The notes under the pieces were generated by a model, which did no database searches, was not told where the DNA came from, and was given only the letters and a program-made list of their open reading frames with translations. A DNA stretch of 63,898 nt, counting the filler, from Reclinomonas americana ATCC 50394 (Eukaryota): assembly GCA_048213135.1 (NCBI GenBank). It is 5 parts of 3 records of this genome, joined end to end, with 100 filler letters (N's around TTAATTAATTAA, not from the genome) between each part and the next. Parts side by side here need not be neighbours in the genome. Positions count along the whole stretch, not along the records: positions 1 to 25,941 come from PS015357.1; 4 more parts are not named here. The stretch is one strand, 5' to 3'. The position numbers were made by a program, and so were the translations under genes. Shown here one piece after another: positions 3,048 to 63,898 of the stretch (position 1 is its first letter; every line of letters begins with the position of its first letter).

Positions 3048-3182
3048 TGTAGCGTCTCAATAAAGTTGAATCCGGCCTAGCTCTAACTCGTTGATTTTCC
3101 TAAGAGCAGATTTCTGAAATTAAGAATCTAAATTCAGAAAAGTAGCCTTAAAAAACGCCATTCTCAAAAATCGCGAGTCTAG
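3048..3182 (+). repeat. Transposon left end with three spaced putative TnsB sites
   Basis: TCTCAATAAAGTTGAATCC (3055-3073), TCTGAAATTAAGAATCT (3113-3129), TCTCAAAAATCGCGAGTCTAG (3162-3182). Confidence 0.8.
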
Positions 3183-3379: not shown

Positions 3380-4747
3380 TCACTCCGTGGCTGGTCGCAA
3401 GTGCTGATCACGCAGGTGAACCGTGGTCTGATCGATGCTCGGATAGACAGTGGTCGCGTTGATGTTGATGGCATCCAACTGCGCCAGAATATGCTCCTTG
3501 TTACCCACGGTTACCCGCGAAACCTCGATCCCGTCGTTGCCCCACTCCGGCAACGTTGCCTCATGACCGAAGAGAAGGAACGCCCCCGATTGGGACTTGA
3601 TCCGGCTATTGGTCCTTTTTGCCTTGACACACACGACAGAGCCGAGATCGTCGGGCTTGATCCGACCTTCGAAATAGCTCTTTTCCGACTTGATATGGTG
3701 GAGCAGTTTACGAGCGACATCAGTCTCGTTGAACTGCACGGCATCCAGGCGAAGGTCGATCAGGCTCTTTTGGGAATGAGGCAGGTTCGAGAGGTTCGCT
3801 AGGCAGCTGACCGTATCGGAGTCGAAGTACTTCACCTTGTCGCGCGCAAGGCGAAAGACAATCACCTCCCCTTTCGTCTCCATGAGCTCCGGCTTGCAGT
3901 GACAGGCGAAGAACAAGGCGACGAGAGGATTGCCCGAGATATCGAGCAAGCGGGTGGGAAGGCCATAGTGCTGCATTCTCACCAAGCGATCGAAGCAGTA
4001 CTGGTCGCCTTGGAACTCGTCGTAGTGAGCGATCAGCACTTCCTTGCAGAGCCGGTCCTCGTCCGGCATGTATTTCCACGATCCGTTCGGCCACTTTCTG
4101 AGCAGCGACGGCGTTAGTTCGAACGTGCCATCCTCATGGCCGCGGTAAAAACTTTCCGCTGTCGGGTCCTTTTCGACGTCGAAGAGCACCTTGAGAAAGC
4201 TCTCGACGCTGTCGGCCTCGCCAATCTCATTCTTTCGGCGCTCGGGCGGCTCAGCCGCCACTCCGGCTCGTCCGTCGCCGTAGCGCGCCATGGCTTCCCG
4301 CCCACCGGCACTGAAGTCAGCAAGGTTCGTCAATACGTCCCGGTAATTGCCAGGCCGCACCGCCCAATGGGTTCGATAAAGCTGGAAGTTGACGATTCCG
4401 AACGCCTTGCGAGCCGCCTCGACGCTTGGAAACTGGACTTCGCCAAAATTGACTGCGGTGCTGAATTGCGCAGCGACCACCTTCTTGTCGGCGCGGATTT
4501 GCCGCAGGTGTCCGAACCGGACGAGCATCGTCGGCTGGTCAGGGCCGGTGTCGATCTCGCTGCAGAGAAAGGTCGGCAACTTTTCCAGGAAGGCCAACGC
4601 CGGCCCGTCCAAACCGACCAGTCGCTGTTCTGTGTCTGTCGGGGTATGCTCGAACATGCGGCCCCGGCCCATCTCGATCAACGTATCGTCCTCGGCAAGC
4701 CAGGAGCGGTTGCCAAACGAGATGTAGTTGAAGTTTTCGAGCATCAT
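3380..4747 (-). CDS. FRG domain-containing protein
   Basis: FYRGH...LTPSLLR and MQHYGLPTRLLDISGNPLVALFFAC, plus NSRIKSQSGAF; extra uncharacterised N-terminal domain. Confidence 0.9.
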   Translation of the reverse strand: MMLENFNYISFGNRSWLAEDDTLIEMGRGRMFEHTPTDTEQRLVGLDGPALAFLEKLPTFLCSEIDTGPDQPTMLVRFGHLRQIRADKKVVAAQFSTAVNFGEVQFPSVEAARKAFGIVNFQLYRTHWAVRPGNYRDVLTNLADFSAGGREAMARYGDGRAGVAAEPPERRKNEIGEADSVESFLKVLFDVEKDPTAESFYRGHEDGTFELTPSLLRKWPNGSWKYMPDEDRLCKEVLIAHYDEFQGDQYCFDRLVRMQHYGLPTRLLDISGNPLVALFFACHCKPELMETKGEVIVFRLARDKVKYFDSDTVSCLANLSNLPHSQKSLIDLRLDAVQFNETDVARKLLHHIKSEKSYFEGRIKPDDLGSVVCVKAKRTNSRIKSQSGAFLLFGHEATLPEWGNDGIEVSRVTVGNKEHILAQLDAININATTVYPSIDQTTVHLRDQHLRPATE

Positions 4748-4817
4748 TCCTCGAAGCGGCTAGTGACGTCTTTCGCAACACAATTTGGAAAGGTTGCAGC
4801 TCACGGCCCTCGTTCCC

Positions 4818-7256
4818 TCACGTCTCAATCGTCAGCGGCACTCGGGTCTTCAGGGTAGCAATCGACGCTTCGGTCTCAGTGGCGAGGTCGACGTCAATCC
4901 GCGCGGTCTCGATCGAGGCGATCAGGGAAAATCGTACGGTTTCCAACGGGTCTCCCGCGCCACTGTTGTTCCGCCACCATCCATATTGAGGATAAATGGC
5001 GATGGCGCCCATTTGGCTCAGATCGCTTGCGCGGCCTGTCCAAATGTCCTGCCGGATCGAGCCGTTGGAGCGCTTTTTGTCGCCTAGGAGCCAGGTTCCC
5101 ACCGGTTGCCTCGTCGGAAGCTTCTTGCCCGGCTCTCGGGCCAGCTTGTTGATCCTCGCAATTGCAAGCTCGTCGTGGTCGTCGGGATCTTTGATATCGA
5201 ATTTGAGGTGATGAGAATGATAGTTTTGAGCCCTTTGAGCGTTGAGTGCGAGAGGGGCAGGGTCGGTAAAATAAGAAAGTGTGATCCTTAAACTAACGTC
5301 CGCTGTCCCGAGTGCCTCAAGCGCATCGATTGGCCAAGGAAGGCGATAATATCGCATAAGGGCGTGCTGCCACTTTTTGTTTTTATTTTGCAAGAGCTGA
5401 AGCTCGTCCTGGATAATCATCGTGAGCGCATTGTTCGCACTCTCAAAGACGCGCTTTTCATTGGGCACGCCCCACCCGAAGCGGTGGAGCAAATTATCCA
5501 CGGTGGACCGACTCACGCGACCGGCGCGAGCTTCCATCGCCGGGGTCCAACGCGCGGCGTGGACGACAAGCCCGCGAACCGTCTCCGGCCAGAACTCGGG
5601 ATATGCGGCCATCACCCGCGTGCAGAGACCGGCGGCCGCTGCCGTCGCAATGCTCGTGTCCGTGCCGGCGGCAAAGGGCCGATTGGGCAGCTCGTGGTGC
5701 GTTGTGAGGACAGATAGCTTGTCTGCTTTTCCTAGGGTCAGCCCTTCGTCGTCAGCAAATAGATTTCCACCCTCCATCACAATATCAGGCTTGTGACCCA
5801 AGCGGTGTTCCCAGCTGATGCTCGTCCGGGCGGTCGGACATAAATCCCCCGCAGGCGCGTGACCCAGCGTTGGCTTCTGTCCGCTGATTGCCGTGTATGC
5901 TCCCACCGTCAGCGCATTGACCGACTGCCCGGGCGACTGGATCCCCGCTTCATCATTGGCTGTGGTGTATCCTGCTACCTCGGCGGGAAGAGTGTCGATA
6001 TTGCCGGCGGCGATGCAGAACAGTCTCTTCGGGTTGTCGCGGCCGAAGCTTAGCCTGTCGACCAAGGATGACAGAGCGCCGGGAGATCCGTTGCAGGGAT
6101 CTGCGGGAAGGCTGAATGAGAGCGAGTAGACGCGTTCCGAACGCTGCTTCTCGTTCAGCCTGAACGCAGCAATGAGTGCCTCTGCGGCGCTTTTGAAGGG
6201 AGCGCCGTGGCTGTTGAATATCGCCACAGACTCCAGGGCAGTCGTCAATTTTATCGGCCCGGTTGATCCGTTAATCCAGCGCGTAAGGTCGCCGAACAGG
6301 GCCGCGCCAGCCATTTGTGTGCCGTGACCATGTGCGTCTTCGGCTTGAAGTCCTGTGGCAATCGCGTGCGCGCGACTTTCTGGGAGGGAGCCCGCAAGCA
6401 ACGGATGATTGTGGCGGACGCCAGTGTCTATGACCGCTGTGCGAGGAGCATTTGACCCGGCAAGCTCCAGGCGCCCTTGCAGCGAACGCGTGAGGTCGAC
6501 CCGCTCGCGGGGTGTCAACGAGGTTGGCGGGATTCCGATTGTCGAAGCGGGCCGAATTTCGACGGCCGCGGCGGTCGCCTCGAGGAGTGCCTTGAGATTG
6601 TTGAATGTGCCGGTGAGGACAACCACTATTGCGTTGGGGAAGCTGATGGGCTCGCTATTTTGTTGCAACGAGAATTCACGAGCCAGTCTGCTGACGGTCT
6701 CGAAAGCCTCGGGCCTGAGCCAGATCTCCCAATCCTGCTGACCGGTCGCTTTGGCACGAAGACTCATCCCGGGAGGTCCGGCCCAGAGCGGCTCGATGCC
6801 TGTCGGAGCGACGGACCTTATCTGCTCAAAAAAGGAAAAATGCCTGGGGCGGTTCCCTTCCTCGTTCCAATCGCCATAACGCTCGACAGCCGTCGTAAGC
6901 TTCTTGAGAGAGCTTTCGGAGGCGTAGGCGTGAACCTTTTGATTCAGCCCCTTTCCGACCGATTTGAGCAGCGTTATCCCGTGCGTGGCTTGAAAGAATT
7001 GAAGATCAATGCCGACGTCTGTCCGGGCGTCGAACCGCATCAGCGCGCCACGCTCGTCTTTCCTCAACTCATTCCTGATTGCCGCACGTCGTTCTGCGTA
7101 TGCGGTGACGACGCCTGCAACGTTCTCGGTCAGCTTTGAAGCATGAGCGGGCCGATTGTGTACGGGCGGCGTCGGCACTGGTTCGAGCGGTGCAGTGACG
7201 GGGGAGAAAGCCCGATCTAGGCCAATCTTCTTGCGAACGATCAGGTGCTGCGCCAA
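4818..7256 (-). CDS. ietS: S8 subtilisin-like serine protease (IetS-like)
   Basis: Catalytic D (VIDTG), H (HGHGTQMAG), oxyanion N (AAGN), S (DTSIAT); HKPDIVMEGGN and WPETVRGLVVHAARW; no signal peptide; directly follows an AAA ATPase. Confidence 0.85.
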   Translation of the reverse strand: MAQHLIVRKKIGLDRAFSPVTAPLEPVPTPPVHNRPAHASKLTENVAGVVTAYAERRAAIRNELRKDERGALMRFDARTDVGIDLQFFQATHGITLLKSVGKGLNQKVHAYASESSLKKLTTAVERYGDWNEEGNRPRHFSFFEQIRSVAPTGIEPLWAGPPGMSLRAKATGQQDWEIWLRPEAFETVSRLAREFSLQQNSEPISFPNAIVVVLTGTFNNLKALLEATAAAVEIRPASTIGIPPTSLTPRERVDLTRSLQGRLELAGSNAPRTAVIDTGVRHNHPLLAGSLPESRAHAIATGLQAEDAHGHGTQMAGAALFGDLTRWINGSTGPIKLTTALESVAIFNSHGAPFKSAAEALIAAFRLNEKQRSERVYSLSFSLPADPCNGSPGALSSLVDRLSFGRDNPKRLFCIAAGNIDTLPAEVAGYTTANDEAGIQSPGQSVNALTVGAYTAISGQKPTLGHAPAGDLCPTARTSISWEHRLGHKPDIVMEGGNLFADDEGLTLGKADKLSVLTTHHELPNRPFAAGTDTSIATAAAAGLCTRVMAAYPEFWPETVRGLVVHAARWTPAMEARAGRVSRSTVDNLLHRFGWGVPNEKRVFESANNALTMIIQDELQLLQNKNKKWQHALMRYYRLPWPIDALEALGTADVSLRITLSYFTDPAPLALNAQRAQNYHSHHLKFDIKDPDDHDELAIARINKLAREPGKKLPTRQPVGTWLLGDKKRSNGSIRQDIWTGRASDLSQMGAIAIYPQYGWWRNNSGAGDPLETVRFSLIASIETARIDVDLATETEASIATLKTRVPLTIET

Positions 7257-7292: not shown

Positions 7293-8300
7293 TCAATGAT
7301 CGTGGCGTCGTTCCGCAATTGCCCCAAGGATTAATTCTGAGGACATTACACCGCCGTGCTCCAGAACGGCATCTCTGGCGGCATCTTGAGCGGCGGATGC
7401 AAGATCTGCCGGGCTCATTCCTTCTGCCGCCTGGAGGATCTCGGGCCAGTTGAGGCCATCCAGTTCAAAAGCCAGCAGGTGCATTTCGAACAGTGGCTGA
7501 ATCAGGTCTCGCTCGGGCAGTTCAAATTTGAGCTGCGTGTCAAATCGGCGGAAAACCGCCCGGTCCAGCAACTCGGGATGATTGGTTGCCGCGAGGATTA
7601 AGCTGGAGCTCTTATCCTCGTCGAGAAACTGAAGCAGGGAATTCAAAACACGACGAGCTTCGCCGACGTCATTCCCGACGACACGGGACGTCGCCAGGGC
7701 ATCGACCTCATCAAAGAAATACACGCCGCGCGTCGATGTCATGGCGTCGAAAACCAGGCGCAGTTTCGCGGCGGTTTCGCCCATGAACTTCGTGATCAGT
7801 CCGTCCAACTGGATCGTGAACAACGGATAGTTCAACTCGCCCGCGATGGCCGCCGCCGTCATCGTCTTCCCGGTACCCGGCGGCCCGGAGAGGAGGATCT
7901 TTCGGCGCGGAGACAATCCAAAATCTCCGAGGCGCGCTCTTTCGAGCTGCTCCCTAACGAGCTTGGCGAGGCGGGCAGCCAGCCGCGGCGGCAGCACCAG
8001 GTCGTTGAGTTTTAGACGCGGGAAAGACGCTGACAATATGCCGGCCAGCTCACCCCTCGGCTTCGCCAGCGGAATTGGGTCGCGCGAAAGCTCCAATGCA
8101 CCAATCTGCGAACGGGCCTCGGCTATAAGATCGCGCATTTCCTGGGCGACGCGTATGTGGCCCTTTTTTACAGCCTCCTCAGCCAGCTGCGTGGCCACTG
8201 ACAGAAATCGCCGGTCGTCGCGCGCATTATGGCTCCGCAGCAGAGACAAAATCTGCTGCGCATTGCCTACCGGCCCATTTTTTCCTGCCGACCCGGTCAT
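7293..8300 (-). CDS. ietA: AAA+ ATPase (IetA-like)
   Basis: Walker A GPPGTGKT, Walker B FFDEVD, AATNHPELLDRAVFRRFD; paired with the S8 protease. Confidence 0.85.
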   Translation of the reverse strand: MTGSAGKNGPVGNAQQILSLLRSHNARDDRRFLSVATQLAEEAVKKGHIRVAQEMRDLIAEARSQIGALELSRDPIPLAKPRGELAGILSASFPRLKLNDLVLPPRLAARLAKLVREQLERARLGDFGLSPRRKILLSGPPGTGKTMTAAAIAGELNYPLFTIQLDGLITKFMGETAAKLRLVFDAMTSTRGVYFFDEVDALATSRVVGNDVGEARRVLNSLLQFLDEDKSSSLILAATNHPELLDRAVFRRFDTQLKFELPERDLIQPLFEMHLLAFELDGLNWPEILQAAEGMSPADLASAAQDAARDAVLEHGGVMSSELILGAIAERRHDH

Positions 8301-8632
8301 TTGCTGCGCCCGATATCCTCATCGAGCTTATTGCAGAGAAGTTCAATATTCGTCAACCATTTTTGCATATTTTCCATAATAATCTTGCCTTGCCGCAGCA
8401 GTTCGGCCGCGGGCTCGATTGCGCCCAACTTGCCGGCGAGGGCTGGGTTGGCTTGAACCATGTAATCATGGATTTTTTGGCGACTTTTGGCCGCAAGATG
8501 CACTTCACTGTTCAGGATCTTGCTTAAGTGGCCCTGGTCCATTTTCAGCTCGCGCGCGAGCCGAGACTGCGTCAGGTGCGCCTGAGACATGTGTTCCTTC
8601 AAGGCCACAATCAAGAAATCGTCATCGAGCAT
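8297..8632 (-). CDS. XRE-family HTH protein
   Basis: LTQSRLARELKMDQGHLSKILNSE HTH; stop codon overlaps the ATPase start (ATGA). Confidence 0.8.
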   Translation of the reverse strand: MLDDDFLIVALKEHMSQAHLTQSRLARELKMDQGHLSKILNSEVHLAAKSRQKIHDYMVQANPALAGKLGAIEPAAELLRQGKIIMENMQKWLTNIELLCNKLDEDIGRSK

Positions 8633-8665: not shown

Positions 8666-8977
8666 CTAGGGTTGAATGGAAACCAAGAAGGAAATGCGGG
8701 AGGCGGCGTCGTTCTCCCAGGGCGCACGCAATTCGAACGTGAGCTCGCCAGTTCCAACTCTCTCTGCCTTGAGCCGAAAGAGGACAGTGCCGTCGGCACC
8801 TGGTGTTACAGATGCCTGCCGGGTGACCGATACCAGAGAAACAAGATCTGCCGGGAGCACCGGATCAAACAGGTATCCGGAAGCGCCCGGCTCATGGAGA
8901 GAAATCAGGAATTCCTCCCCGATGGAGACGCTGATGCTATCCCCAGCTTGGAACGCAGGGCGTGCAGTTTCACCCAT
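8666..8977 (-). CDS. Chagasin-family (I42) cysteine peptidase inhibitor
   Basis: Loop motifs EPGASGY (NPTTGY-like), PGADG (GxGG-like) and RAPWE (RPW-like) in a 103-aa beta-rich protein; start overlaps the protease stop. Confidence 0.8.
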   Translation of the reverse strand: MGETARPAFQAGDSISVSIGEEFLISLHEPGASGYLFDPVLPADLVSLVSVTRQASVTPGADGTVLFRLKAERVGTGELTFELRAPWENDAASRISFLVSIQP

Positions 8978-9834
8978 CAGAGTGCTTCAACGCTCAGCCC
9001 ATAAGATGGAAAGGCATCGTCAATGCAGCATTGCCCATACTTGATACGGAGGTACCCCATTTCTCCCCACTTTGCGCTCCAGCTGTTTTTCACGATCCAG
9101 CAGCCGTCTGTGTCATCGTAGCCGACGACGCAGACTGCATGATGGCCGACCAATTGCCCCTGAACGTGCTCGTAGATGCCCGACTTGTAGACGCGGAGAT
9201 CCTCAAACACCTGCATCTGAGCTATGATCGGCCCGTCCTCGTAGATCGCCTGCTTTCGCTGCGATTGAGAAACCAAATGATGCCAACTCTGGACGCGGTA
9301 GGCGGGCGGGATCGCTCTATGCAAGGTCATCCGCGGATCGTAAGGAAGATCTTTCTCCCACCCGACTCCATTCGCCTGAGCCCGGCGTAGGGCATCTTCG
9401 ACCAGCATACCCGATTGGCAAGTTGCTGCGCTGCCGAAGAACAGGTCGGCTTCGGAAAGGTCGATGTCTTTCAGAGCCTCGTCTGCGATCCGGGCCGCGG
9501 CCTCCATGGCGCCCAGCACGGCAAAGGACACGCAGCTTCCGCAAGGGCCCTGGTTGCGAACATCCGTGACCCGGCAGGCGCCATCGACATTCCGCCAATC
9601 GTGAGCGGGAGGCAAATTCGAAGCCGGCAGTCCCCATGCCCGTGTGCTGGCGGCTGCGATATCGGCCAGATTTCCGCTGCTGGGAGTGCTGCCGAGCATC
9701 GCTGCGAACACGGAGTCGGGCAGCTGTGACAGCTCATTCTCCTCCGCCTGCCAGGCAGCCTTGCGTGACTGGATGCTTTGCTCGACGGACTTCAGGTCAA
9801 TCATGTAGATCTCCGGAGAGGTGAACTCGGCCAA
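8977..9834 (-). CDS. Papain-family (C1) cysteine peptidase
   Basis: DWRN, NQGPCGSCVSF (catalytic Cys), GHHAVCVVGY (His), KNSWSAKWGEMGY (Asn); no signal peptide; start may be the ATG at 9804. Confidence 0.92.
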   Translation of the reverse strand: MAEFTSPEIYMIDLKSVEQSIQSRKAAWQAEENELSQLPDSVFAAMLGSTPSSGNLADIAAASTRAWGLPASNLPPAHDWRNVDGACRVTDVRNQGPCGSCVSFAVLGAMEAAARIADEALKDIDLSEADLFFGSAATCQSGMLVEDALRRAQANGVGWEKDLPYDPRMTLHRAIPPAYRVQSWHHLVSQSQRKQAIYEDGPIIAQMQVFEDLRVYKSGIYEHVQGQLVGHHAVCVVGYDDTDGCWIVKNSWSAKWGEMGYLRIKYGQCCIDDAFPSYGLSVEAL

Positions 9835-10043
9835 TCTGGTCCGTCAGCAATGGGTTTGGTTAGGAATAAACCGTTGTGGCTGGAACGGAAGGCTTGAGAG
9901 TGCGAGGGGCCGCGAGCCCTGGTTTGTCGCTTCCAGCCGCGGTAGTCGATCTTCGACACCGGCGCGTCGAGATAATTGTAATGTCGCGCTGCCAGGGCTG
10001 CGGCAGACTGCGCGGACTCGCCCCGGCGACGCGTCGGAGCCGA

Positions 10044-13001
10044 TTATTTCCGATTGGCGCCCTCGACCCATTTGAGGCCCAAGCCCTTCAGCATCGTCCC
10101 AATTGAGTGAACGCTATAGTCGGCGCCGAAATTCTCCGAAATGTAATTGACGACGTCGGTCTGGTTATACGTTCCCGCTCCGCTAGCGTTCGCCATGATC
10201 AGCGTTTGCGCAAAATCGTGAACGGACCGGCGCTGTCCAGGGTTTAGGACAGCCTTGTTAGCATACAATCTAAGTCCATCGATGCCATCACGATTGAAGT
10301 CATTGATCAGAAGTTTCACAGCTTTGCGCGTGGTCTTCATTCCGTTCAAAACATCATTCAGCGGGATTCCTTGAATCAACTGCGCCGCGATGTCAAAGCG
10401 CTTGCGTTCCAGAGAGCGGGCGGTTTTGTATTTGGATAGCGTATCGGCTGGTATGTCCGTTCGTATCTGAGGGAAAACTTTGTTATATGAATCTCTTACG
10501 ATCACCCCGCTGGCCGATTTCCATCTAAATCCCGCTTCGGTGAGCATGATCCTTAGTTTTCCCTGACCGACTCTGTGACCACAGACGCTTTTCGCGAACG
10601 CCTGAAGATCATCGATCCGCCATCCTCCCTTTTTGGATGAGACGTCATCCACCATCTCACGGGCGCGTCGAACGATCGCGGCTCGCTGCTCAGCAGTGAT
10701 GACGGCGACCTCTCTCGGCGGGCGCTCTGCCGCGACCAGTGCAGCCAAGCCACCTCGCCGATAGCGGAGCGAAAAGATGTATAGACTGTTCGCCGCAACG
10801 CCGTACCTATGCGCAGCTTCGTCGAGAGGTGCGCCATCGATAAGGTCGGCGACGGCCAGAAGCCGACGTTTCTCGCGGGCTTGACGACTGGCGGCTGCCT
10901 GCCTGCGGAGTGGCTCCGCATCAGCCGACGGTCCGAACCGAATGACCTTGGCATTCAGGATGCGCAAAATCTCTTCGCGATCGGACTCGGCGAATGGGCG
11001 GTTTAGCAAGGTAATGCCAGGATCACGCTCGCCATCGATTGCCAGGCCTCGGGGCCCGAGCTTCTCATTCAGTTCCCCTCTTTTGGCGAATAGAGGGGCA
11101 TAGCCGATCTCGATGAGCTCTACGCCGATGTCGGTCAGCAGTCCCTTCAACGTGCGGGTCACCATACCCAGCTTCGTGGCAAGAAATTTGACGAAGACGT
11201 ACTCGGAGTGAAATCGGTCGATATCACCACGTTGGATGATATATTTTCGCGAATACCTGACGTCCGGGTCGTCCGGCCGCTCTTGTGCGCTAATAATCCC
11301 TGCTCTGACCAGCTCGCGCAGATGCTCAAACGATATCCGTAATTCAATAGCGACGGCCTCCGCGCCGATTTCGGAATAGGGAGTAGCGCTAGCGAGGTTG
11401 TCTATGAGCTCCTTCGCGTCCTCGTAATCGATAACCAAGCGCGCTCCGATGCTGGTGGCATCTGGCACCAAGGCTCTCAGCCGGATAGAGCCCGCTTGGA
11501 TGCCGGAAAATATATCGGCCAGCGATGTGAGGCGCCGCCGTCCCGCTATCGAAAGAGCGTCGCACAACCTGATCGACTTCCGGTCAGGGTCTGGGGCGAG
11601 ACGCGCCTCCAGGTCACGCTTGGTGGCATCCCAGGCACTTTGCCTCCAGGCGAGTTCTTCAATGCCGGCCAACCGGCGTGCGACGTCTGTGGCTGCAACG
11701 AGAAAGTCACCCTGCTCCAACGCCTCGATTGTCGCATCGCTGACCCTCTCCTGGCTTTTGAGCGAGGTGACCGTCAGCAGGTCGCGAGACTCGTCGATGA
11801 CCTGAAGGGCGAGCTCCTTGTTGACGAGCGACAGTTCGCCCGTTCCACCGCCACCAGCCACGACAATCCCAGGGTGATCAATGATCCTCTTGAAGCGATC
11901 ATAGGCTGTTTTTCGCAGTTTCAGCACGGTCTGGAGACTGCAGATGCGTGTAGACCAACGCTGGATGACGGCGAGTGGGTATCTTGCGACCTCCTCGTCC
12001 GGGACGGCATCGAGATGCCTGCGCAGCAGCGACTGGAAATAAGCGGCGCGGGTTTCCCCGACGCGCCAAGGCTCGATCAGGTCGGCCAGCGGTCCGAGCA
12101 TTTCCCGTGTCTTGTCCGAGTACGTCGACGTGACCGGCCGTGATCGCATTTCCTCGACCAGCTGAAAGAACCCGTTTGGCCAGTCCAGGAGCGTGCTCAT
12201 TCCCGAAGACAGAAACTCCGGCGTCCATGACTCTCGTTTGCGGTGGGATAGCTCTCGGCGCAACGAGTCGGTTCCCGCGGATTCCATCGACACTGCGCCA
12301 AAGAGCGCCGCAAGGCTGATGATCTCACCAGGGCCAAAACGTGCCAGGTCCGGCGCGAAACACTGGATCGCCCGCTCGCGTGTCGAGGGATCTGCATCGA
12401 CCAGGGCAGCGGCTAGCTTAATGTTGGCCAGCACGGTCTCGTCGCGGACAACAGCATCTGCTTTGGCATCGCGCAGGTCGATCTGGCATTCGGCGCAATG
12501 CACGATCGATGGATAACTCCAACCGAGCGTCGCTTTGCAGTTCGGGCATTCGGTCAGGAGGACCTCTCCCGTCTCGGCCGAGGCGTTGATCGCAACGATG
12601 TCCCACTCGGCACGATGGATAGGCGATATACGCAATGCAGCGGGAGAAACGGCTCGAACGTGCGACGTCAGCAGCCTCGTGCGAAACGGGAGGCCTCTGA
12701 AGTTGCAAAACTCGCGCTCGCCATCGCCGGGCAAGCTCGTGTATGCGCGTCTCGCTATTTCCGCGCGCGGCAGCCCGCACAGATCAGCGAGCGCGGTCAT
12801 CGCGTCATCTTGATCCTTGGCTCCGGGCGCTAATAGTTTTGCTGCTCCAGTAGCCTTCAGGACCACATGTTCGGCGACCCCATTGGCCGCCGCGAAGCGT
12901 GCCAGCAGCCCGCGTAAGCTCTCGCTGGGATGTGGTGCTACGCGGTCCGGCGCTGTCGTGGCGCTGATCTCGAAGCAGAAATCCGGCCGATCATTCGACA
13001 T
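10044..13001 (-). CDS. tniQ: TniQ/TnsD-family target selector, ~985 aa, with several HTHs and two C-terminal IS630-like HTH modules
   Basis: PHPSESLRGLLARFAAANG and CPNC...CAEC TniQ motifs; ATG at 13001 just after the tnsC stop. Confidence 0.85.
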   Translation of the reverse strand: MSNDRPDFCFEISATTAPDRVAPHPSESLRGLLARFAAANGVAEHVVLKATGAAKLLAPGAKDQDDAMTALADLCGLPRAEIARRAYTSLPGDGEREFCNFRGLPFRTRLLTSHVRAVSPAALRISPIHRAEWDIVAINASAETGEVLLTECPNCKATLGWSYPSIVHCAECQIDLRDAKADAVVRDETVLANIKLAAALVDADPSTRERAIQCFAPDLARFGPGEIISLAALFGAVSMESAGTDSLRRELSHRKRESWTPEFLSSGMSTLLDWPNGFFQLVEEMRSRPVTSTYSDKTREMLGPLADLIEPWRVGETRAAYFQSLLRRHLDAVPDEEVARYPLAVIQRWSTRICSLQTVLKLRKTAYDRFKRIIDHPGIVVAGGGGTGELSLVNKELALQVIDESRDLLTVTSLKSQERVSDATIEALEQGDFLVAATDVARRLAGIEELAWRQSAWDATKRDLEARLAPDPDRKSIRLCDALSIAGRRRLTSLADIFSGIQAGSIRLRALVPDATSIGARLVIDYEDAKELIDNLASATPYSEIGAEAVAIELRISFEHLRELVRAGIISAQERPDDPDVRYSRKYIIQRGDIDRFHSEYVFVKFLATKLGMVTRTLKGLLTDIGVELIEIGYAPLFAKRGELNEKLGPRGLAIDGERDPGITLLNRPFAESDREEILRILNAKVIRFGPSADAEPLRRQAAASRQAREKRRLLAVADLIDGAPLDEAAHRYGVAANSLYIFSLRYRRGGLAALVAAERPPREVAVITAEQRAAIVRRAREMVDDVSSKKGGWRIDDLQAFAKSVCGHRVGQGKLRIMLTEAGFRWKSASGVIVRDSYNKVFPQIRTDIPADTLSKYKTARSLERKRFDIAAQLIQGIPLNDVLNGMKTTRKAVKLLINDFNRDGIDGLRLYANKAVLNPGQRRSVHDFAQTLIMANASGAGTYNQTDVVNYISENFGADYSVHSIGTMLKGLGLKWVEGANRK

Positions 13002-13003
13002 CG

Positions 13004-13996
13004 TCAGTCCAGTATTTCTTCCCAAGGGCCCTTCCAGACTTGCTGCGGCAGGAGCGGCCTGTCCGAGGTGAAGGGATTCAGCGCCACGGCATTCGAGAAC
13101 TTCCATAGGCGGTCGAATGCAGAGGCCAGGATCGCGTTGTCGATGACGTTGCTGCCCTGCATGATGGCATCTGTCGCGGCGATCTGCAGGAGTTTTGCCG
13201 TGGCGCCGGGGTAGCCCAGCGAAGCAGCATGGATTCGAGCCGCAACATCAGGCTTGGCAAAATTGCTTCGCGAAAAATCTGCGACCGTCACGAACTGGTG
13301 GTCGAAATTGGCCAGGTACGCCCTGTAGAGCTCCCAGTCTTTCTTCTGTTGCGGGTTGCGTTGGTAAGGCTCGACTTCCCAGTGGAAGTCATTGCGGCCG
13401 ATCAGATGCCCGTTCTTCGCAAAGACCGAGCGTGCGCGCGTCGTGCCGACCAGGAGGACGGCGCATATTCCGCGGCAATTGTTGATCAGATTCTGGATCC
13501 AGTCCGAAACGTTCTTGGATACCTTCCCTCGGTCCTTCTCGACCAGACGCTGAAGCTCGTCAAAAATGATGAGGGTTGTGCCGCGCCGGCGAAGGGTCGC
13601 CACGAGCTCGACTCTTTTGAAATCACCGTCCCCCTTTTCGGGGTTGAGATGATTGAGGGCCGTCAAGGCGGCGCGACCCAACGTTTTGGTCGTGGCGCCT
13701 GACGGAACCTCCACATAGACCACTGGCACGCGATCGGCCGCCCCCTCTCTGATGGGTGGATGCTTCGACATGAAAGTGTCGATGATCGTCGTCTTTCCGC
13801 CACGGGTCGGCGCGGTCAGCGACGCCGATGCGGACTCGCCTCCTCCCAGGGCCGTGTCTTTGAACAACTGGATCTTCTTCACCAGATCAATTGTCCGATC
13901 GTTCTCAATCCGAATGCCTTTTATCGCATTGATGCGAGATGCGTGGCGATCGGACAGCTCCATATGATTGGAGCTCATTAAAACCGTCTGCAGCAT
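13004..13996 (-). CDS. tnsC: TnsC/TniB AAA+ ATPase
   Basis: Walker A APTRGGKTT, PVVYVEVP, Walker B LIIFDELQRL, VLLVGT; between tnsB and tniQ. Confidence 0.9.
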   Translation of the reverse strand: MLQTVLMSSNHMELSDRHASRINAIKGIRIENDRTIDLVKKIQLFKDTALGGGESASASLTAPTRGGKTTIIDTFMSKHPPIREGAADRVPVVYVEVPSGATTKTLGRAALTALNHLNPEKGDGDFKRVELVATLRRRGTTLIIFDELQRLVEKDRGKVSKNVSDWIQNLINNCRGICAVLLVGTTRARSVFAKNGHLIGRNDFHWEVEPYQRNPQQKKDWELYRAYLANFDHQFVTVADFSRSNFAKPDVAARIHAASLGYPGATAKLLQIAATDAIMQGSNVIDNAILASAFDRLWKFSNAVALNPFTSDRPLLPQQVWKGPWEEILD

Positions 13997-13998
13997 AC

Positions 13999-16164
13999 TT
14001 AAGCCTTGTGAATCGTATTGAATGAATATTTTGCCAAGAGCGCGTCGGTATCGTCTTCGTCTTCGAATTCCGACGAGGGCTCCGTGGGGTTCGATTTGGG
14101 TGCTGCCGATGTGATGGCAGGGAGCGGCGCCGTGCTTGCTACCCCTTGCGTCGAAGCATCGCCCTCACGCGTTTCTTCGTCGTCGAGCTTTTGGGATGAA
14201 GCGACCTGCATCGGCACGGTGCCCACGGAAATTGGCCGGGTCGTTGAGCCATTGTCGCTTTGAACCACGGCGATGGTTGTGGATTTCTGCGATCCAATAC
14301 CTTGAAAGCGGGCATCAGCCGCCTTTCCGCGGCCTTCGCGGATGGCTTGTGCGGTTTCCTCGATCAATTCGGCTCGGGTGATCATCAGATCGCGGAAATC
14401 TTTGGGGTTCCGCTCTCTGCGGCGATTTTCGTCGCGAATAAGCCCGTGCTGCCAAAGCGAAAGCCCCTTGGCATAATCGAATTCGTCGCAGCGCATCGGC
14501 CCCAGATACTGGCCAGTCTGTGGCTCTCGTACGTAGATGCAGCCGAGATCCGTGGGGTCGAAGCGCACGTCGACATCAACGCGAGGGGCGCGAGCAGAGG
14601 CCAGGATCGTCCGAACGACGTTGTCGTTTCGATATGTCAGGCCTTTAAATCTGATGCCTTCACGGGAGATGGACCGGCTGGCGTATCGCGATAGCGAATG
14701 GGCGAGATCTCCCATCCGCGCCGGCAGTTCCACACGATGGCGCTGCGTTCCCTCGATCCAGCGCTTTTCCGGTGTGGTTCCCATAGAACGATTGCGGGAA
14801 CGCGCGTAATCCTTCACCAACCACCGTAAGAACATGCTCTCGAAGGTGAGAAACGAGATGCACATTTCCTGTTGAGGGTTCAGTTCGAGAGCCTTCAACT
14901 TCCGTGCATCGCCAAAGGTGGTTCCCGGTAGCCGGTGGATAAAACGCGTGTTCATCGTGCCGAAGAAGCGCTCGATGATACCCTTGTAGTGAGGCGTTCG
15001 GACGGGCGATGTCTCCAGTTCGATGCCGAGTTCCGCGCACGCGTTCGGCAAGGAATAGCCGACCATTTCTTTGCCGTTGTCGGCGATCAGCTTGAACGGC
15101 ACGCCCATGGCGAGCCAATCGTCTGCAACGCCTGCCTTTCTGCGGGCGAGATCGAGCTTCGGCGCAATGGCCTGCCGCAGGCACATCATCACCGAATAGA
15201 CGCTCGGCGGTTCGAAGCCGATGTAATAGCCGAGCGGATAGCGCGAATAGGCATCCAGGGCTATCGTGAGCCAAGGGCGCCCACCGCAGGGCAAGCCAGT
15301 CGCGTCGTCGAAAAAGAGCCAGCTGTCGATCTTGGTGTGATCGATGATGATTGCTTCCAGTGGAGCATCATGCTGCGGGGCGGCTTTCAGCGGGCGCAAA
15401 AGCCTATCGGCTTGCCGTCCGAGCCGAAGCCGCATCGTCCGATAATAGTCGCTGTCACGAACACGCCGAAAAACCGTGGCCTGGCTGGGCTCCGGCAATT
15501 CCTGCCCGGCTGGCGCCGGCTCGCCGCTGCAATCGTCAAGGAGCCCGGCGTTCCGCTTGGCGATCTGGCCAATGACGTGTTCGTAGACGGCGCTTGGCGG
15601 CAGGTTGCCTCGATTCTGATACACAGATGCGATGCTTTCGCTGATGATCAGCTCGACATCAGCATCGATCCCCTTTTTGCGCCCCTTCTTGTCATGGAAG
15701 GAGCGCATTGCCCGTAAATTGCGCCGGCCGGAAACCCCTCGGGTCCTCAGCCACCGGCAGAGGGTTCTCCAATCGGGCTTGTGGGTGTGGCCTTCTCGGG
15801 CGGCGACAGCATCGATGAGTGCGGACAAATCCTGCTCATTCTTCCGCGGCCGCGGGTCAGCTTGATCAAATGCGACGCAATAGCAGTGACGCCAAAGTGC
15901 CTCCTGCGGAAACTTCGCCGGGAGAGCATCGAGCGCGCGTTCCGCCGCGACCCGGTATTTTTCAGGCAAGCGCGACCAGGATGGCACCGCAATGCGATCG
16001 GCGAGGTAGAGCTCGATGAACCCGTTCTCGTCGAGCACACGGCGACGCCCATTCTCTTCATCGTCGAAGGCCATCCGGCCGTCTTGGAGCAGCCGGGCGA
16101 ATTGAAATGCCCGCTGGTCGATCATGACGGTCGTGTCGACCTTGAGCCTCAGGTTCGCGTTCAA
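13999..16164 (-). CDS. tnsB: TnsB DDE transposase with Mu-like C-terminal domain
   Basis: IDHTKID, RPWLTIALDAYSR, ADNGKEM, KGIIERFFGT, VRFDPTDLGCIYV. Confidence 0.93.
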   Translation of the reverse strand: MNANLRLKVDTTVMIDQRAFQFARLLQDGRMAFDDEENGRRRVLDENGFIELYLADRIAVPSWSRLPEKYRVAAERALDALPAKFPQEALWRHCYCVAFDQADPRPRKNEQDLSALIDAVAAREGHTHKPDWRTLCRWLRTRGVSGRRNLRAMRSFHDKKGRKKGIDADVELIISESIASVYQNRGNLPPSAVYEHVIGQIAKRNAGLLDDCSGEPAPAGQELPEPSQATVFRRVRDSDYYRTMRLRLGRQADRLLRPLKAAPQHDAPLEAIIIDHTKIDSWLFFDDATGLPCGGRPWLTIALDAYSRYPLGYYIGFEPPSVYSVMMCLRQAIAPKLDLARRKAGVADDWLAMGVPFKLIADNGKEMVGYSLPNACAELGIELETSPVRTPHYKGIIERFFGTMNTRFIHRLPGTTFGDARKLKALELNPQQEMCISFLTFESMFLRWLVKDYARSRNRSMGTTPEKRWIEGTQRHRVELPARMGDLAHSLSRYASRSISREGIRFKGLTYRNDNVVRTILASARAPRVDVDVRFDPTDLGCIYVREPQTGQYLGPMRCDEFDYAKGLSLWQHGLIRDENRRRERNPKDFRDLMITRAELIEETAQAIREGRGKAADARFQGIGSQKSTTIAVVQSDNGSTTRPISVGTVPMQVASSQKLDDEETREGDASTQGVASTAPLPAITSAAPKSNPTEPSSEFEDEDDTDALLAKYSFNTIHKA

Positions 16165-16177
16165 GGTATTGCCCCCC

Positions 16178-16945
16178 TCAAGCCGCTTCTTGGACTGATG
16201 GCATTGCGCTCAGCCGTGTCTCGTAACCGGCCTTGAGCCGAACTCTCGTCTGGCCGTTCACGGGCCTGGAAAGGTCCACCGAGATGATCCTGCGGGCGAT
16301 CAGAGCGAGGACGCGATCTTCCGCCCGTTCCTGCCCGACGAGCACCCGAGCGCAGTCGTGCATGGTCGACTCTGAACGTGCCTCGAGGTGCTGGATGAGC
16401 GCCGCGAGCTCAAACGGGCCTGGGCAAAGCCGGCGCGTCTTCTCGACCATTCGAGCATTGTTGTGCCAGACCGGGAACATGCGAAAGCGCATGTCGGAAA
16501 CGATCTGAAAGTTGATTCCAACGGAACGATAGAGGTGCCGCGCATGGTGGATCTTCGCGCGGTACAAAGGATCGAGCTTGCGCAAATCGTCCCGGTATTT
16601 GCATTCGACGATGCGCGTTACGCCGTCCTCCTGCTCCACCTCAAAGTCGGGAGTGTATCGGACCTTTCGGCCACCGAGCCTGAAGGACAGCGTGTGCGGC
16701 TGCTCTCTGTAGCTCACGACAGATTCGTCCACTTCGAACCATCGGATTGCCTTCCGCTCAAGCCGCGATTCCCAAGCGATCATCCGTCTGGATTTGACGC
16801 TAGGGACCAATCCGACGGGCATGTGTCGTCGGCCATTGAAGATCTTACGAACCGGAGAGCCGTCGTCTCGTTGTTCGATCACCGCGTCTGCCTGTGAAAG
16901 CAGATCGTCGAGGCGCTGTTTGGCATCCCTGTCATTCACAAGCAT
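16178..16945 (-). CDS. tnsA: TnsA endonuclease
   Basis: WESRLER, YREQP, RYTPDFEV and IVECKY (PD-(D/E)xK); first gene of the tns operon. Confidence 0.9.
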   Translation of the reverse strand: MLVNDRDAKQRLDDLLSQADAVIEQRDDGSPVRKIFNGRRHMPVGLVPSVKSRRMIAWESRLERKAIRWFEVDESVVSYREQPHTLSFRLGGRKVRYTPDFEVEQEDGVTRIVECKYRDDLRKLDPLYRAKIHHARHLYRSVGINFQIVSDMRFRMFPVWHNNARMVEKTRRLCPGPFELAALIQHLEARSESTMHDCARVLVGQERAEDRVLALIARRIISVDLSRPVNGQTRVRLKAGYETRLSAMPSVQEAA

Positions 16946-18012: not shown

Positions 18013-18582
18013 TGGTCGTGTCGTTAACCATATTTATTTAAAATTCTAACGATATTTTCATATCACTGATATATTGATTGTCGGGCGGATGGTCTCGACG
18101 GCTCCCGGGGTCAACCGATTTCTCCGGCAGCGCTCTGCCAAGCCACCTCCCATACCGACTGCTCCTCGACATCTCTGGCGATCCGGCTCTTGCCGGCCAT
18201 GTTGCTCATCGTGATGTGGCCGGTCGGTGGCTTCATCAGTCCAGCAACGGAGTCTCTTATGAGAGCACAACGGCGCTTCAAGCTGGCCTATCCGCGTTCT
18301 CTGGCCTCCACGGCCCTTCGACGCCTTGATAGAACCTCCGGTCGAAAAACGGCCCGCCGTCTGGCCCCAAGGACACCAGTCACCGCTTGGCATGAGACCG
18401 AGGACCTGGACGTCCTGCTTGATGACGATTTCGATGAACTCCTCTGGGACCCGAGAATTCTCCTGCAGCTTGCCAATCAAAATTGAAGGGATGATCGGCG
18501 CGCTCAAGGCCCGCCTCGAAACTCGATCAGCATCCAGCGGCTTCAGATTTCTCGTTCTATGTCGACACAAGAAGGAGCCAAT

Positions 18583-20700
18583 ATGCACCATCGCAAATCC
18601 GGCTCGTCCGCCAATAAGCGCCAGCCCGCCAGCGACCTCCTGGCGCGAGCTTACCTTGAAAGCCTCGCAAAGGAGGCAGGCGCGAAGATCAAACCAATGC
18701 TTCGTGGTGAATATTCCGATGATGCGCTGGAGCGCCTGATAGACGAGCTCGACGATGACGTCGCCGATCCCAGCATTGCGATACTCCGCGCGGATCTGGC
18801 AGCTGTCGCGATTTTGATGGCTCGCGCGATCGAAGGGGAACCCGGTCTAGCGCGCGGATTGCGTCGGGAAGCTCCCATCGTGGTGTTGACCGCCCATAAT
18901 CCGAGCTTCATCGAGATGGCGAAGGAAGTAGCTCAAACCTGCGTGTTGCCGACCGGCTCGCGCGTCCTGGAGGTCGGCGGCCTTAGTATCGGATTCCATA
19001 CCAGGGGAATGCTCGTCGCTCGCGACGGGACTGCGAAAGACGATCGGCCGGAAAAAGGTAATCGTGAAGTCACTGCTGCACTGCAGCGCCGAATTCCTGT
19101 GCTGGGAATCGCGCCAGATCCCATTCGCCACCTCCCGCAGGCTCTGATGCGGACTGCGGAGTATGAGCTCGCGCTGCCGGCGCTCGACCAGAGTGCGATT
19201 GCCCTGGTCATCGAAGCGGTGACCGGGCAGACGCCAACTCGCGATATGGATCCAGATTTGATCCGGCTGATCGATATCGACGATCTTCCGCTGGCATTCA
19301 GATCTGGCCGCGCAGGAAACGACTGTCTCAACGCCATCGAAGACGTGGTGCGGAAAAAGGGCGACTACCTGATCAGCGGGCCCTCGCTGGAACAACTTCC
19401 CGGATATGGCGCGGCCAAGGAGTGGGGTCTCCAGTTGGCCGAAGACTTGGCGGAGTACAAGGCAGGCCGGCTCAGTTGGGCTGACATCGACAACAAGGGG
19501 TTGCTCGTTTCGGGGCCGCCTGGCACAGGAAAAACGCAGTTTGCGCGCGCGTTGGCTAAAACCGCTCGGGTTCCATTGATTTCGACGTCCGTAGCGCAAT
19601 GGAATGCGGCCACATACCTCTCCGGTACTTTGCAAGCTATCCGCGGAGCGTTCGCTCAAGCCCGACGTCAGGCGCCGTGCATTCTATTTATCGACGAAAT
19701 GGACGGTATCTCTGATCGCGCGAAGCTTCGTGGTGATTATGTCGAGTACTGGACCCAGATCGTAAACCTCCTGCTTGAACAGCTTGCTGGCATCGAGGAA
19801 CGACCCGGGGTCGTGGTCATCGGCGCGACAAATCATCCGGACCGGATCGACGCGGCAGTAAAACGGGCAGGCAGACTCGATCGGGAAATCGAGATTCCAA
19901 AACCGGACACGCTCACCCTTGCCGACATTTTCCGCTTTCACATCGGCTCGGAGCTCTTGCCCGATGCAGATCTTGTTCCCTTGGCGCTGGCGTCACGTGG
20001 GGCCACCGGAGCGGATGTTGAGGCGCTCGTCAGGCGTGCGAAAGGTACCGCCAGGCGTTCTCGTCGCGCGCTGATGCTCGACGACGTCATGGCGGCCATA
20101 GCGGCCGACGCGCCAGCCATTCCGGCTCAAGCTCGGTGGCGCATTGCCGTGCATGAGAGCGGTCATGCGTTAGCCGCCCACGCGCTGGAGACTGGAACTG
20201 TCTGCGGGATTTCGATCCATACGCGGGGCGGCTTCTTTGAATTCGAGAGCAATCTGTCTGGCTCAGCAACGTTCGACCGCCTTCAGCGGGAAATGGCCGT
20301 GTTATTGGCCGGCCGCTCGGCAGAGCGTCTAATCTTGGGCGATGTGAGCGCTGGGGCTGGGATGCAACCCGCCTCCGATCTGGGGCGTGCGACGGCATTC
20401 GCCATGCTGATCGAGACGCAATGCGGGATGGGTCATTCCGGAGGCGCCTACCTGGAGGAGGTCAAGGAGCTCGCCCAAGTTCCAGCCCTGCACCTCGCCG
20501 TCAATGCGCAGCTCAAAGACGCGGAAGCCAAGGCAGCGCAAATTCTTGAGCCGAGACGCGCCACATTGTTGGAACTGGCAACGACGCTCGACCAACGAGG
20601 CTATCTTTCGGGAGGCGAGATCGAAGGCATCATCGGCCAAACTAGGATGGAAGCGGCTAAGTGGGACCGGGCTCCTGCGCAAGTCGCGAGGTCCGCATGA
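18583..20700 (+). CDS. Soluble FtsH-like AAA+ ATPase / M41 zinc protease
   Basis: GPPGTGKT, LFIDEMD, GATNHPDRIDAAVKRAGRLDR, HESGH zinc motif, LLAGRSAE; no transmembrane segments; AAGGAG RBS before ATG 18583. Confidence 0.88.
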   Translation: MHHRKSGSSANKRQPASDLLARAYLESLAKEAGAKIKPMLRGEYSDDALERLIDELDDDVADPSIAILRADLAAVAILMARAIEGEPGLARGLRREAPIVVLTAHNPSFIEMAKEVAQTCVLPTGSRVLEVGGLSIGFHTRGMLVARDGTAKDDRPEKGNREVTAALQRRIPVLGIAPDPIRHLPQALMRTAEYELALPALDQSAIALVIEAVTGQTPTRDMDPDLIRLIDIDDLPLAFRSGRAGNDCLNAIEDVVRKKGDYLISGPSLEQLPGYGAAKEWGLQLAEDLAEYKAGRLSWADIDNKGLLVSGPPGTGKTQFARALAKTARVPLISTSVAQWNAATYLSGTLQAIRGAFAQARRQAPCILFIDEMDGISDRAKLRGDYVEYWTQIVNLLLEQLAGIEERPGVVVIGATNHPDRIDAAVKRAGRLDREIEIPKPDTLTLADIFRFHIGSELLPDADLVPLALASRGATGADVEALVRRAKGTARRSRRALMLDDVMAAIAADAPAIPAQARWRIAVHESGHALAAHALETGTVCGISIHTRGGFFEFESNLSGSATFDRLQREMAVLLAGRSAERLILGDVSAGAGMQPASDLGRATAFAMLIETQCGMGHSGGAYLEEVKELAQVPALHLAVNAQLKDAEAKAAQILEPRRATLLELATTLDQRGYLSGGEIEGIIGQTRMEAAKWDRAPAQVARSA

Positions 20701-20915
20701 TCCGCCTCGGCCAAGCCCTGCATGAAGACGAAGGGTCGGGTTCTCTGCCGGAGGTCGAGGCTCTTTTGCTCCAGGCAACCCACGACCTTGCCGCCACCCT
20801 AGGCGTCGAGCCTGAGCAGGCATTGCGCGCCCTCGCGGTTGTCATACGGCGGCGCGCTGATTTCGAGCGCCTCAAAGGCGCGGCCAAGGCAACCTCAGGT
20901 CGCATCCTCCGCTGA
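20697..20915 (+). CDS. Small helical hypothetical protein
   Basis: ATGA overlap with the stop of the FtsH-like gene. Confidence 0.55.
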   Translation: MIRLGQALHEDEGSGSLPEVEALLLQATHDLAATLGVEPEQALRALAVVIRRRADFERLKGAAKATSGRILR

Positions 20916-21010
20916 GCGCACCGCGGTTCTGAGAATCTACGATTGCCTGCCAGCCGGCTCTCGCCGGTTGGGTGCGCTTTTGACCGAAATCGCCCCGAAG
21001 GAGGTTCGCC

Positions 21011-21364
21011 ATGAAAGAACTGGCAGAGAAGATCATGTCGGCGGCCGCTGACCTTCGCCGTCTCGAAGCGGGCTGGCGCCCAACAGAGGTCGACCTGGAA
21101 GAAGCTGTTGGACTCGATGATTGGCTGCAAGGGATCGATTGCGAGACTAAGCAGCATGTTCTCATTGGACAGTCGGTCGGCCACCCAATTCTCGGCGATC
21201 AGCTTATTACCACCAGCCCTGTATTGTGGATCAGTCAGGATCGTAAAATTGCCCGGACACTGAGCCGCTGGTACCGCCTACGGAAGCCTGCTGCATTGGT
21301 GACCGCGCATCAGACTTCCGCGGATCGGGCGAAACCGGAGGACCCAGGGCCGCTTCGTGGCTGA
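21011..21364 (+). CDS. DUF6634-like protein
   Basis: LIGQSVGHPILG...TTSPVLWI...ARTLSRWYRL pattern; AAGGAGG RBS. Confidence 0.7.
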   Translation: MKELAEKIMSAAADLRRLEAGWRPTEVDLEEAVGLDDWLQGIDCETKQHVLIGQSVGHPILGDQLITTSPVLWISQDRKIARTLSRWYRLRKPAALVTAHQTSADRAKPEDPGPLRG

Positions 21365-21432
21365 CCGGGGCGGCAAGTCCGTCTGCAGCGCCTCCTCGCG
21401 TATTCATCGAAATAGCCCGAGGATCCTGACCG

Positions 21433-21804
21433 ATGGCTGAACCGTTGACCAGATCGGAGGAGCTCGTGCTCATTCGCACAGTCATCTCCTTGCTCAAAAA
21501 CTGGTCCGCCAATGATGGCGAAGCGCGAACAATTCTGAATCTGTCGCCGACAACATATGCCGAATGGAGGCGGAACAACGTTGGCTACGTCTCCTCGGAG
21601 CAGGTTTATCGCTCGACCCTTCTTTTGCAGATCCATGCAGCGCTGAGAATGCGCTTCAGCAATGCAAGTCGCGCGGCGGGATGGATGAACCGTCCGAACG
21701 ACATCTTTTCAGGACGAACCCCACTTGCGCTGATCGCCGGCGGCGAGCTCTCATCGCTTGAGCGTCTCCTGGCGTATTTGGCCGCTGACCTTTCGCCGTG
21801 GTGA
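21433..21804 (+). CDS. Xre/MbcA/ParS-type antitoxin (orphan)
   Basis: LLLQIHAALRMRF...WMNRPNDIFSGRTPLALI...LAYL. Confidence 0.8.
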   Translation: MAEPLTRSEELVLIRTVISLLKNWSANDGEARTILNLSPTTYAEWRRNNVGYVSSEQVYRSTLLLQIHAALRMRFSNASRAAGWMNRPNDIFSGRTPLALIAGGELSSLERLLAYLAADLSPW

Positions 21805-63860: not shown

Positions 63861-63898
63861 GCCGGAGAGAGTGTGGTGGAGAGACAACGCAAAGACGC

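Follow-up and report, generated by a model that had tools for sequence, protein, structure and literature searches.

The closest described systems are the IetAS modules, to which the literature attributes both plasmid stabilisation and phage block. According to PMC13069673, IetS of other members is a protease toxin, IetA is its antitoxin and phage protection is recorded, and the anti-phage mechanism is reported as unknown. The same source describes a variant, ietHAS (Liu-DS4), in which an accessory SNF2 helicase is essential (PMC13069673). According to PMC12642450, defence systems commonly use latent effectors that linked proteases activate, and for the inhibitor Cip1 PMC5014320 states that the NPTTG motif matters for inhibition.

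The window, that is, the whole stretch of 63,898 nucleotides analysed here, comes from an assembly of Reclinomonas americana that, at 108 Mb and 16,441 contigs, looks eukaryotic with bacterial contigs scaffolded in. Positions 1–25941 are such a bacterial contig, and 62373–63898 hold an exon-like ABC1-kinase fragment. The features relevant to the present study are as follows.

8977..9804, minus strand: C1A papain-like cysteine protease, predicted zymogen, leaderless, short form (275 aa, PF00112)
9616..9804, minus strand: predicted protease propeptide, procathepsin-B-type, residues 1–63 (structural alignment of the predicted model)
8666..8977, minus strand: chagasin-fold (I42) inhibitor, leaderless (103 aa, PF09394)
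8297..8632, minus strand: XRE-like small HTH protein (weak Pfam HTH matches under the cut-off)
7293..8300, minus strand: IetA-like AAA+ ATPase (PADLOC IetA, E 3e-73)
4818..7256, minus strand: IetS-like S8 subtilase (PF00082, E 5e-45; PADLOC IetS, E 3e-29)
3380..4747, minus strand: FRG-domain protein (PADLOC PDC-S15, E 5e-98)
9805..10043, no strand: tniQ-to-cargo spacer, variable, swapped in related elements
10044..16945, minus strand: tnsA-tnsB-tnsC-tniQ, Tn7-like transposition genes (context)
3048..3068, plus strand: probable element end, beginning with TGT (homology with related elements ends there)

The arrangement is the one originally predicted, with the protease–inhibitor pair between tniQ and the genes for HTH, IetA, IetS and FRG on one strand, as seen from Pfam and PADLOC profile matches, and with the protease stop overlapping the start of the I42-like inhibitor (8977–8666) by one nucleotide (TGATG, at 8977). 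The chagasin and HTH genes are 33 bp apart, IetA and IetS 36 bp, and the HTH and IetA genes overlap by 4 nt. The start of the protease had been placed at a TTG (9834), which is probably wrong in view of the recorded form of 275 aa and of homology with related elements, which begins at 9804–9807 (at 9807 for a 96.6% identical element, L082; another run carries other letters in place of 9804–10019), so that the ATG at 9804 is the most likely start of an ORF ending at 8977. A scan for promoters and terminators gave chance level only, and RNA run X6 was rejected as expression evidence because its coverage is even, spacers included, and it is probably DNA.

Since a variable spacer of 239 bp separates the protease from tniQ on the upstream side, the pair is a member of the cargo block and stands outside the tns operon. 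L082 has ~1.1 kb with a Phd-type antitoxin gene in place of this spacer and run X15 has 248 other letters; X15 also shows greater divergence on the tns side than in the cargo. Taken together, these differences indicate a cargo block that moves as a unit from the ATG at 9804. In L082 positions 8951–9682, between tniQ and the protease, hold the Phd/YefM antitoxin gene together with a partner that bears no annotation, and the spacer is therefore an insertion site for further toxin–antitoxin genes. Homology with L082 (blastn) and with contigs of runs X6 and X15 stops at 3048, where the sequence starting with TGT resembles a Tn7 end; the opposite element end and a target duplication were not found in 3100–25900. 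The different flank of L082 at 3048 was rejected as proof of a separate transposition, since its flanking genes appear from translations to recur 6–9 kb before the start of the window. Near the tns genes, window positions 18559–21804 specify an FtsH-like AAA+M41 protein without a membrane anchor, a DUF6634 protein and an Xre/MbcA antitoxin-like protein, which are probably further cargo of the element.

The protease matches Peptidase_C1 (PF00112) with an E-value of 8e-39 and 134 bits (curated cut-off 20.7), and its catalytic residues are intact, as had been claimed: Q85, C91, H222 and N240, together with W242, are invariant in an alignment of 28 homologues. Likewise, a hydropathy heuristic detects no hydrophobic leader on either protein of the pair, and no twin-arginine motif or lipobox (best 9-residue Kyte–Doolittle mean 0.56 for the protease and 1.29 for the inhibitor), although the cytoplasmic location ascribed to the protease would be based on that absent leader alone. 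The original prediction overlooked a propeptide. The best structural matches of the protease model (pLDDT 93) are zymogens; its residues 1–275 superimpose on 7P–254 of human procathepsin B (1pbh) with Z 31.0 and an rmsd of 2.5 over 266 aligned residues, and the match to the mature domain begins at residue 64. Because the model aligns with procathepsin B, propeptide included, residues 1–63 are predicted to be a cathepsin-B-type propeptide and the protein a zymogen, which would then be locked twice, by propeptide and by chagasin. At the sequence level, PF08127 was matched by only one of 28 family members (E 0.003). The protease has neither a C-terminal extension nor a sensor domain, is under purifying selection (dN/dS 0.14 against L082), and retrieved only Peptidase_C1 clusters in an Atlas search.

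The main caution comes from its cysteines. The pairs C88–C129 and C235–C259 are kept in nine of nine IetAS-linked proteases, and a third pair in seven of the nine, having been lost in the lineage of the window. The conserved pairs sit where papain-family disulfides form, and are more in line with an oxidising compartment than with the cytoplasm, which argues against a simple cytoplasmic toxin. As a separate observation, the protein P0282 (440 aa) joins a TIR_2 domain to a C1A zymogen of the short form and of the same protease family; its catalytic Cys and His appear to have been replaced (CGAAV, GLNA), and it is a possible inactive decoy.

The small protein matches Inhibitor_I42 (PF09394; E 9e-11, 42.4 bits, cut-off 27.2), and structure prediction assigns it to the chagasin fold, its ten best fold matches being chagasin and amoebiasin chains (TM 0.65–0.77), with a Foldseek match to EhICP2 at E 5e-7. 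The loops PGASGY, PGADG and RAPW stand where NPTTG, GxGG and RPW are expected; G34–Y35, G60/G63 and P86–W87 are kept, with the first loop reading PGASG and the third RAPW. Of the 102 paired chagasins, only 39 contain the exact NPTTG motif. Selection on the gene is purifying (dN/dS 0.13 against L082), and no other gene of the block has diverged as far in that comparison (86% identity versus 94–99.6%).

Across the wider family, the best 80 loci each were taken from genomes, metagenomes and viral contigs, with more than 500 matches in each collection. Of the 160 prokaryotic loci (best 80 genome plus best 80 metagenome), 101 have a chagasin gene within about 1 kb after the protease, and a viral origin was rejected given the absence of chagasin from all 80 viral C1 loci (75 with none and 5 too short, from the best 80 of more than 500). 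Distance matrices of protease and chagasin are correlated (rho 0.62, compared with at most 0.21 in 500 permutations), as co-inheritance predicts, and hydrophobic leaders occur in none of the 101 chagasin-paired C1 proteases versus 20 of the 59 unpaired ones. The idea of a protease checked by its own inhibitor thus stands in so far as this is a cognate, leaderless pair, and the layout is that of type II toxin–antitoxin systems: two small genes, translationally coupled, co-inherited and without export signals. The accompanying idea of a stand-alone toxin is doubtful, given a zymogen with disulfide-type cysteines. Most paired loci are of a long form with a tail of ~80 residues, often with a middle gene as well (46 loci), and the protease of the window belongs to a short-form branch in which the tail is absent (tree support 96). 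Long relatives, leaderless, carry FG-GAP, BTRD1, DUF346, PASTA or Ig-like domains (46 of 150 matches scanned, picked by length).

A general tendency of the pair to lie close to defence genes was not borne out. PADLOC matches were found for 22 of 279 near and 10 of 150 far genes (p 0.70; the scan took in all but one of the 280 near genes and 150 of the 217 far genes drawn at random, with a rough gene caller), many of them, near and far alike, to generic domains, and six of the 22 near matches come from L004, L082 and L112, where they are IetA, IetS or TnsB genes. Most C1–I42 loci lie among ordinary genes, and a defence-gene neighbourhood holds only for the IetAS-linked branch. Neither protein matched PADLOC 2.0.0 (E 0.01) or NCBIfam, in keeping with the view that the pair is not a named defence system. 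Plasmid pairs adjoin caspase-family genes (Deinococcus) or genes for a zeta toxin, an HNH nuclease and a helicase (Bacillus), which a third plasmid locus does not. On the Deinococcus aetherius plasmid (L265, 5938–12786), a long-form cassette is followed by two caspase-family genes on the same strand, and at L017 (7150–8619) an MBL-fold plus trypsin-like protein, reminiscent of the MBL defence modules that a protease activates, adjoins a long-form cassette.

With the protease of the window as query, a search of 400 Alphaproteobacteria genomes gave no match but the window's own, and matches were found in two of 301 Acetobacteraceae genomes, one of 96 relatives of genome G1353 and two of 96 relatives of G1252. 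A locus titled Sphingomonas paucimobilis (L067, genome G003) groups with Nocardioides in the protease tree, making its label doubtful; a genus search from G003 gave actinobacterial-type loci, one of them L019, from Nocardioides, and was uninformative for Sphingomonas.

C1–I42 adjoins IetA(S) in eight loci: the window, L082, L004, L083, L112, L268, L300 and L301. In L004 (Komagataeibacter xylinus K2G30) the order C1–I42–IetA–IetS lies beside tni genes, in L083 the pair is followed by the start of IetA only, and in L112 it is convergent with IetA–IetS, so that the four are not one transcript. The linked proteases form four sub-branches, 35–45% identical, whose separation from stand-alone short proteases is weakly supported (87/61). 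Short pairs without IetAS were found in ordinary contexts in L002, L003, L090 and L311, and L097, L102 and L139 were left unscored because the sequence ends too soon after the pair. At L262 (6523–9180) a C1 gene is followed by a chagasin that continues, with frameshifts, into another kind of S8 protease, short and ending in a TPR-like tail, a second, independent meeting of C1–I42 with a subtilase.

A tree built from 121 IetS-like proteins puts the window, L004 and L112 members on separate sub-branches of one 13-row clade (support 94), outside of which lie eight Acetobacteraceae IetS proteins from genomes without the window's type of protease. A search with IetS only, covering 26 loci of the viral collection and six matches among 391 Rhizobiales-order genomes (wider DNA being taken for five of these six and for three Acetobacteraceae loci), added three in-clade loci (L268, L300 and L301); all three have the order C1–I42–IetA–IetS, and the clade then reached 17 rows with support 100. 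C1 and I42 were absent from all 31 other IetS loci, 21 of which are well flanked (at least 1.8 kb upstream and at least 1.5 kb downstream; one of the 21 too short for the tree). The contrast of three of three in-clade loci with none of 21 others is significant if relatedness is ignored (Fisher p 0.0005), and across nine systems, three of them joined by inference, the identity of C1 rises and falls with that of IetS (rho 0.85; p 0.0008 by permutation). Matches on equal-sized records (9944, 7562, 7070 and 5164 bases) suggest four more co-occurrences of C1 and IetS, and locus tags three apart suggest that K. nataicola likely has the same arrangement.

The carriers of the linked loci vary, and include a Tn7-like element, a tni transposon, a resolvase element and a locus (L300) adjoining a TIR-nSTAND1 gene. 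At L301 a calcineurin-like metallophosphoesterase gene (3940–5301) lies directly upstream of the four genes on the same strand. The genomic coupling of C1–I42 with one IetAS-like clade is thus well supported, and is far stronger than the original prediction, which had also associated the pair with FRG, could know. The latter association is not supported: FRG stands beside the pair only in the window and L082, the same element, and a link of the pair to FRG or to tniQ as such was rejected for this reason. FRG is separate cargo outside the conserved four-gene unit, and tniQ likewise.

The adjacent genes are IetAS-like and not curated equivalogs, the ATPase scoring 213 bits with NCBIfam IteA (cut-off 510) and the subtilase 65 bits with IteS (cut-off 900), both below equivalog level. 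Residues D277, H311, N419 and S535 of the subtilase are invariant in the alignment. The HTH protein is a probable regulator. L301 has an HTH gene at the same place (HTH_31, E 2e-4), for which BLAST gave no alignment with that of the window, and L004, L268 and L300 have none there.

The four-gene unit is real and conserved, and is apparently an undescribed variant of an IetAS-like system, comprising a C1A zymogen (as modelled), a chagasin, an optional HTH protein, an IetA-like ATPase and an IetS-like subtilase on alphaproteobacterial mobile DNA. Our preferred reading, held tentatively and with a likelihood just short of even, is that the pair is the second module of this variant, the latent C1A being a second effector that is probably activated by proteolysis. 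Chagasin would bind any C1A matured by leak and so set a threshold; infection or loss of the element would lift the restraint imposed by IetA and free IetS, which could then cut the propeptide, the chagasin or both, and the released cysteine protease would act as an added effector or amplifier leading to cell arrest. A direction from subtilase to zymogen is preferred because C1A needs processing and is without a sensor, and IetAS elsewhere works without C1A. Support comes from the clade co-occurrence, the tracking identities, the propeptide, purifying selection, operon-like spacing and the TIR-nSTAND1 gene beside L300. By analogy, the essential accessory module that IetAS takes in ietHAS (PMC13069673) may serve as a precedent. 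The preferred reading is weakened by the lack of PADLOC enrichment across the family, the extracellular-type domains of longer relatives and the disulfide-type cysteines. Also counted against it are the absence of NPTTG from every IetAS-linked chagasin, the convergent orientation in L112, and the short pairs without IetAS, which show that the pair persists with no need of IetS. The fully specified version, a two-protease immune or addiction cascade in which IetS freed from its ATPase processes a procathepsin-B-like zymogen checked by chagasin, is a minority possibility, though a serious one; if true, prokaryotes would have an execution step of the cathepsin type, complete with its dedicated protein inhibitor, and IetS would gain a named direct substrate.

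Alternatively, C1–I42 may be a self-contained cassette, similar to a toxin–antitoxin system, that joined an IetAS ancestor once and has travelled with it since, with no biochemical contact between the two. Co-inheritance could stem from one such ancient co-integration, which also counts against the preferred reading, as linked C1s and linked IetSs may each have a single ancestor. The short pairs without IetAS point the same way, and so do the plasmid pairs whose neighbours are unrelated conflict genes (caspase-family in one case; zeta toxin, HNH nuclease plus helicase in another), as do the dS values between the window and L082, which at 0.22 for C1 and 0.50 for I42 exceed those of IetA, IetS and FRG (0.03–0.11) and look like separate allele exchange. 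However, the linkage has been kept at 33–37% IetS identity, across carriers and through the inversion in L112, while other neighbours all change, and mere joint travel is considered unlikely.

The opposite direction of activation, in which C1A is an upstream activator of IetAS, is possible, had been proposed originally as a second option, and draws on the same evidence of co-inheritance as the preferred reading. A phage product would displace chagasin or process the zymogen, and active C1A would destroy IetA or mature IetS. Chagasin, as the fastest-diverging gene and with non-canonical loops, behaves as a sensing part might, and in one relative (P0282) a TIR domain is fused to the window's protease family. 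Against this, IetS-like systems outside the clade manage without the pair, so that activation of IetS is generally independent of it; plasmid records with IetS-like matches (417) far outnumber those with a C1 match (29, mostly from other genera); and the protease is short and has no sensor domain. Such a guard role therefore appears quite unlikely. Least probable of all is a protease that acts outside the cytoplasm after leaderless export or lysis, in nutrition or against competitors or predators, with chagasin protecting the producer and no anti-phage role, for although the conserved cysteine pairs, the domains of leaderless long relatives and the ordinary surroundings of most family loci fit it, it leaves unexplained why the pair is retained exclusively beside one IetAS clade, the short form lacks a targeting domain, and secretion genes are not conserved beside the linked loci.

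From a clade that keeps C1A and its inhibitor by IetAS, a concrete candidate emerges for a substrate or partner of IetS, the linked pair is a natural cognate set for testing bacterial chagasin function, and Komagataeibacter xylinus K2G30 carries all four genes, so that a direct test is feasible. The openly readable full-text literature searched had no mention of C1A and chagasin beside IetAS, and a supplement of PMC13069673 had no Peptidase_C1 or Inhibitor_I42 entry. Bacterial C1–chagasin pairs as toxin–antitoxin or anti-phage systems gave no full-text match; an earlier mention in Rigden 2002 (PMC2373688) is possible.

Among known systems, procathepsin B zymogens are the closest in structure to the protease, the whole predicted model superimposing on them, propeptide included (Z 31.0–31.6, rmsd 2.2–2.5), but the window protease is bacterial, leaderless, only 22–24% identical and on mobile DNA. 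The inhibitor shares with chagasin and ICP proteins (T. cruzi chagasin–cruzipain, Pseudomonas ICP, Cip1) its fold, three recognisable loops and a papain-family partner in the same cell. PMC5014320 describes signal peptides on Pseudomonas chagasins and inhibition of host proteases by Cip1, whereas the chagasin of the window is leaderless, translationally coupled to a cognate protease and without NPTTG. The long three-gene cassette of C1A, small domain and chagasin has the same leaderless protease family and a chagasin partner; the window form lacks its C-terminal domain of ~80 residues and its middle gene, and is tied to IetAS. With the protease-activated effectors (MBL, alpha/beta-hydrolase, Pepco as well as EACC1) there is a proposed likeness, in that a linked protease would free a latent effector, but in the window the effector would itself be a protease, and the available text of PMC12642450 describes neither a papain-type effector nor a protein inhibitor ('papain' having 0 occurrences). 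IetAS itself is matched by the customary succession of an IetA-like ATPase and an IetS-like S8 protease with intact catalytic motifs, and differs in that the clade of the window adds a C1A zymogen, as modelled, and a chagasin, and has profile scores far under the NCBIfam equivalog cut-offs. The likeness to ietHAS (PMC13069673) lies in an IetAS core with an accessory module upstream; in the window the putative accessory module is not a helicase but a second protease with its own dedicated protein inhibitor.
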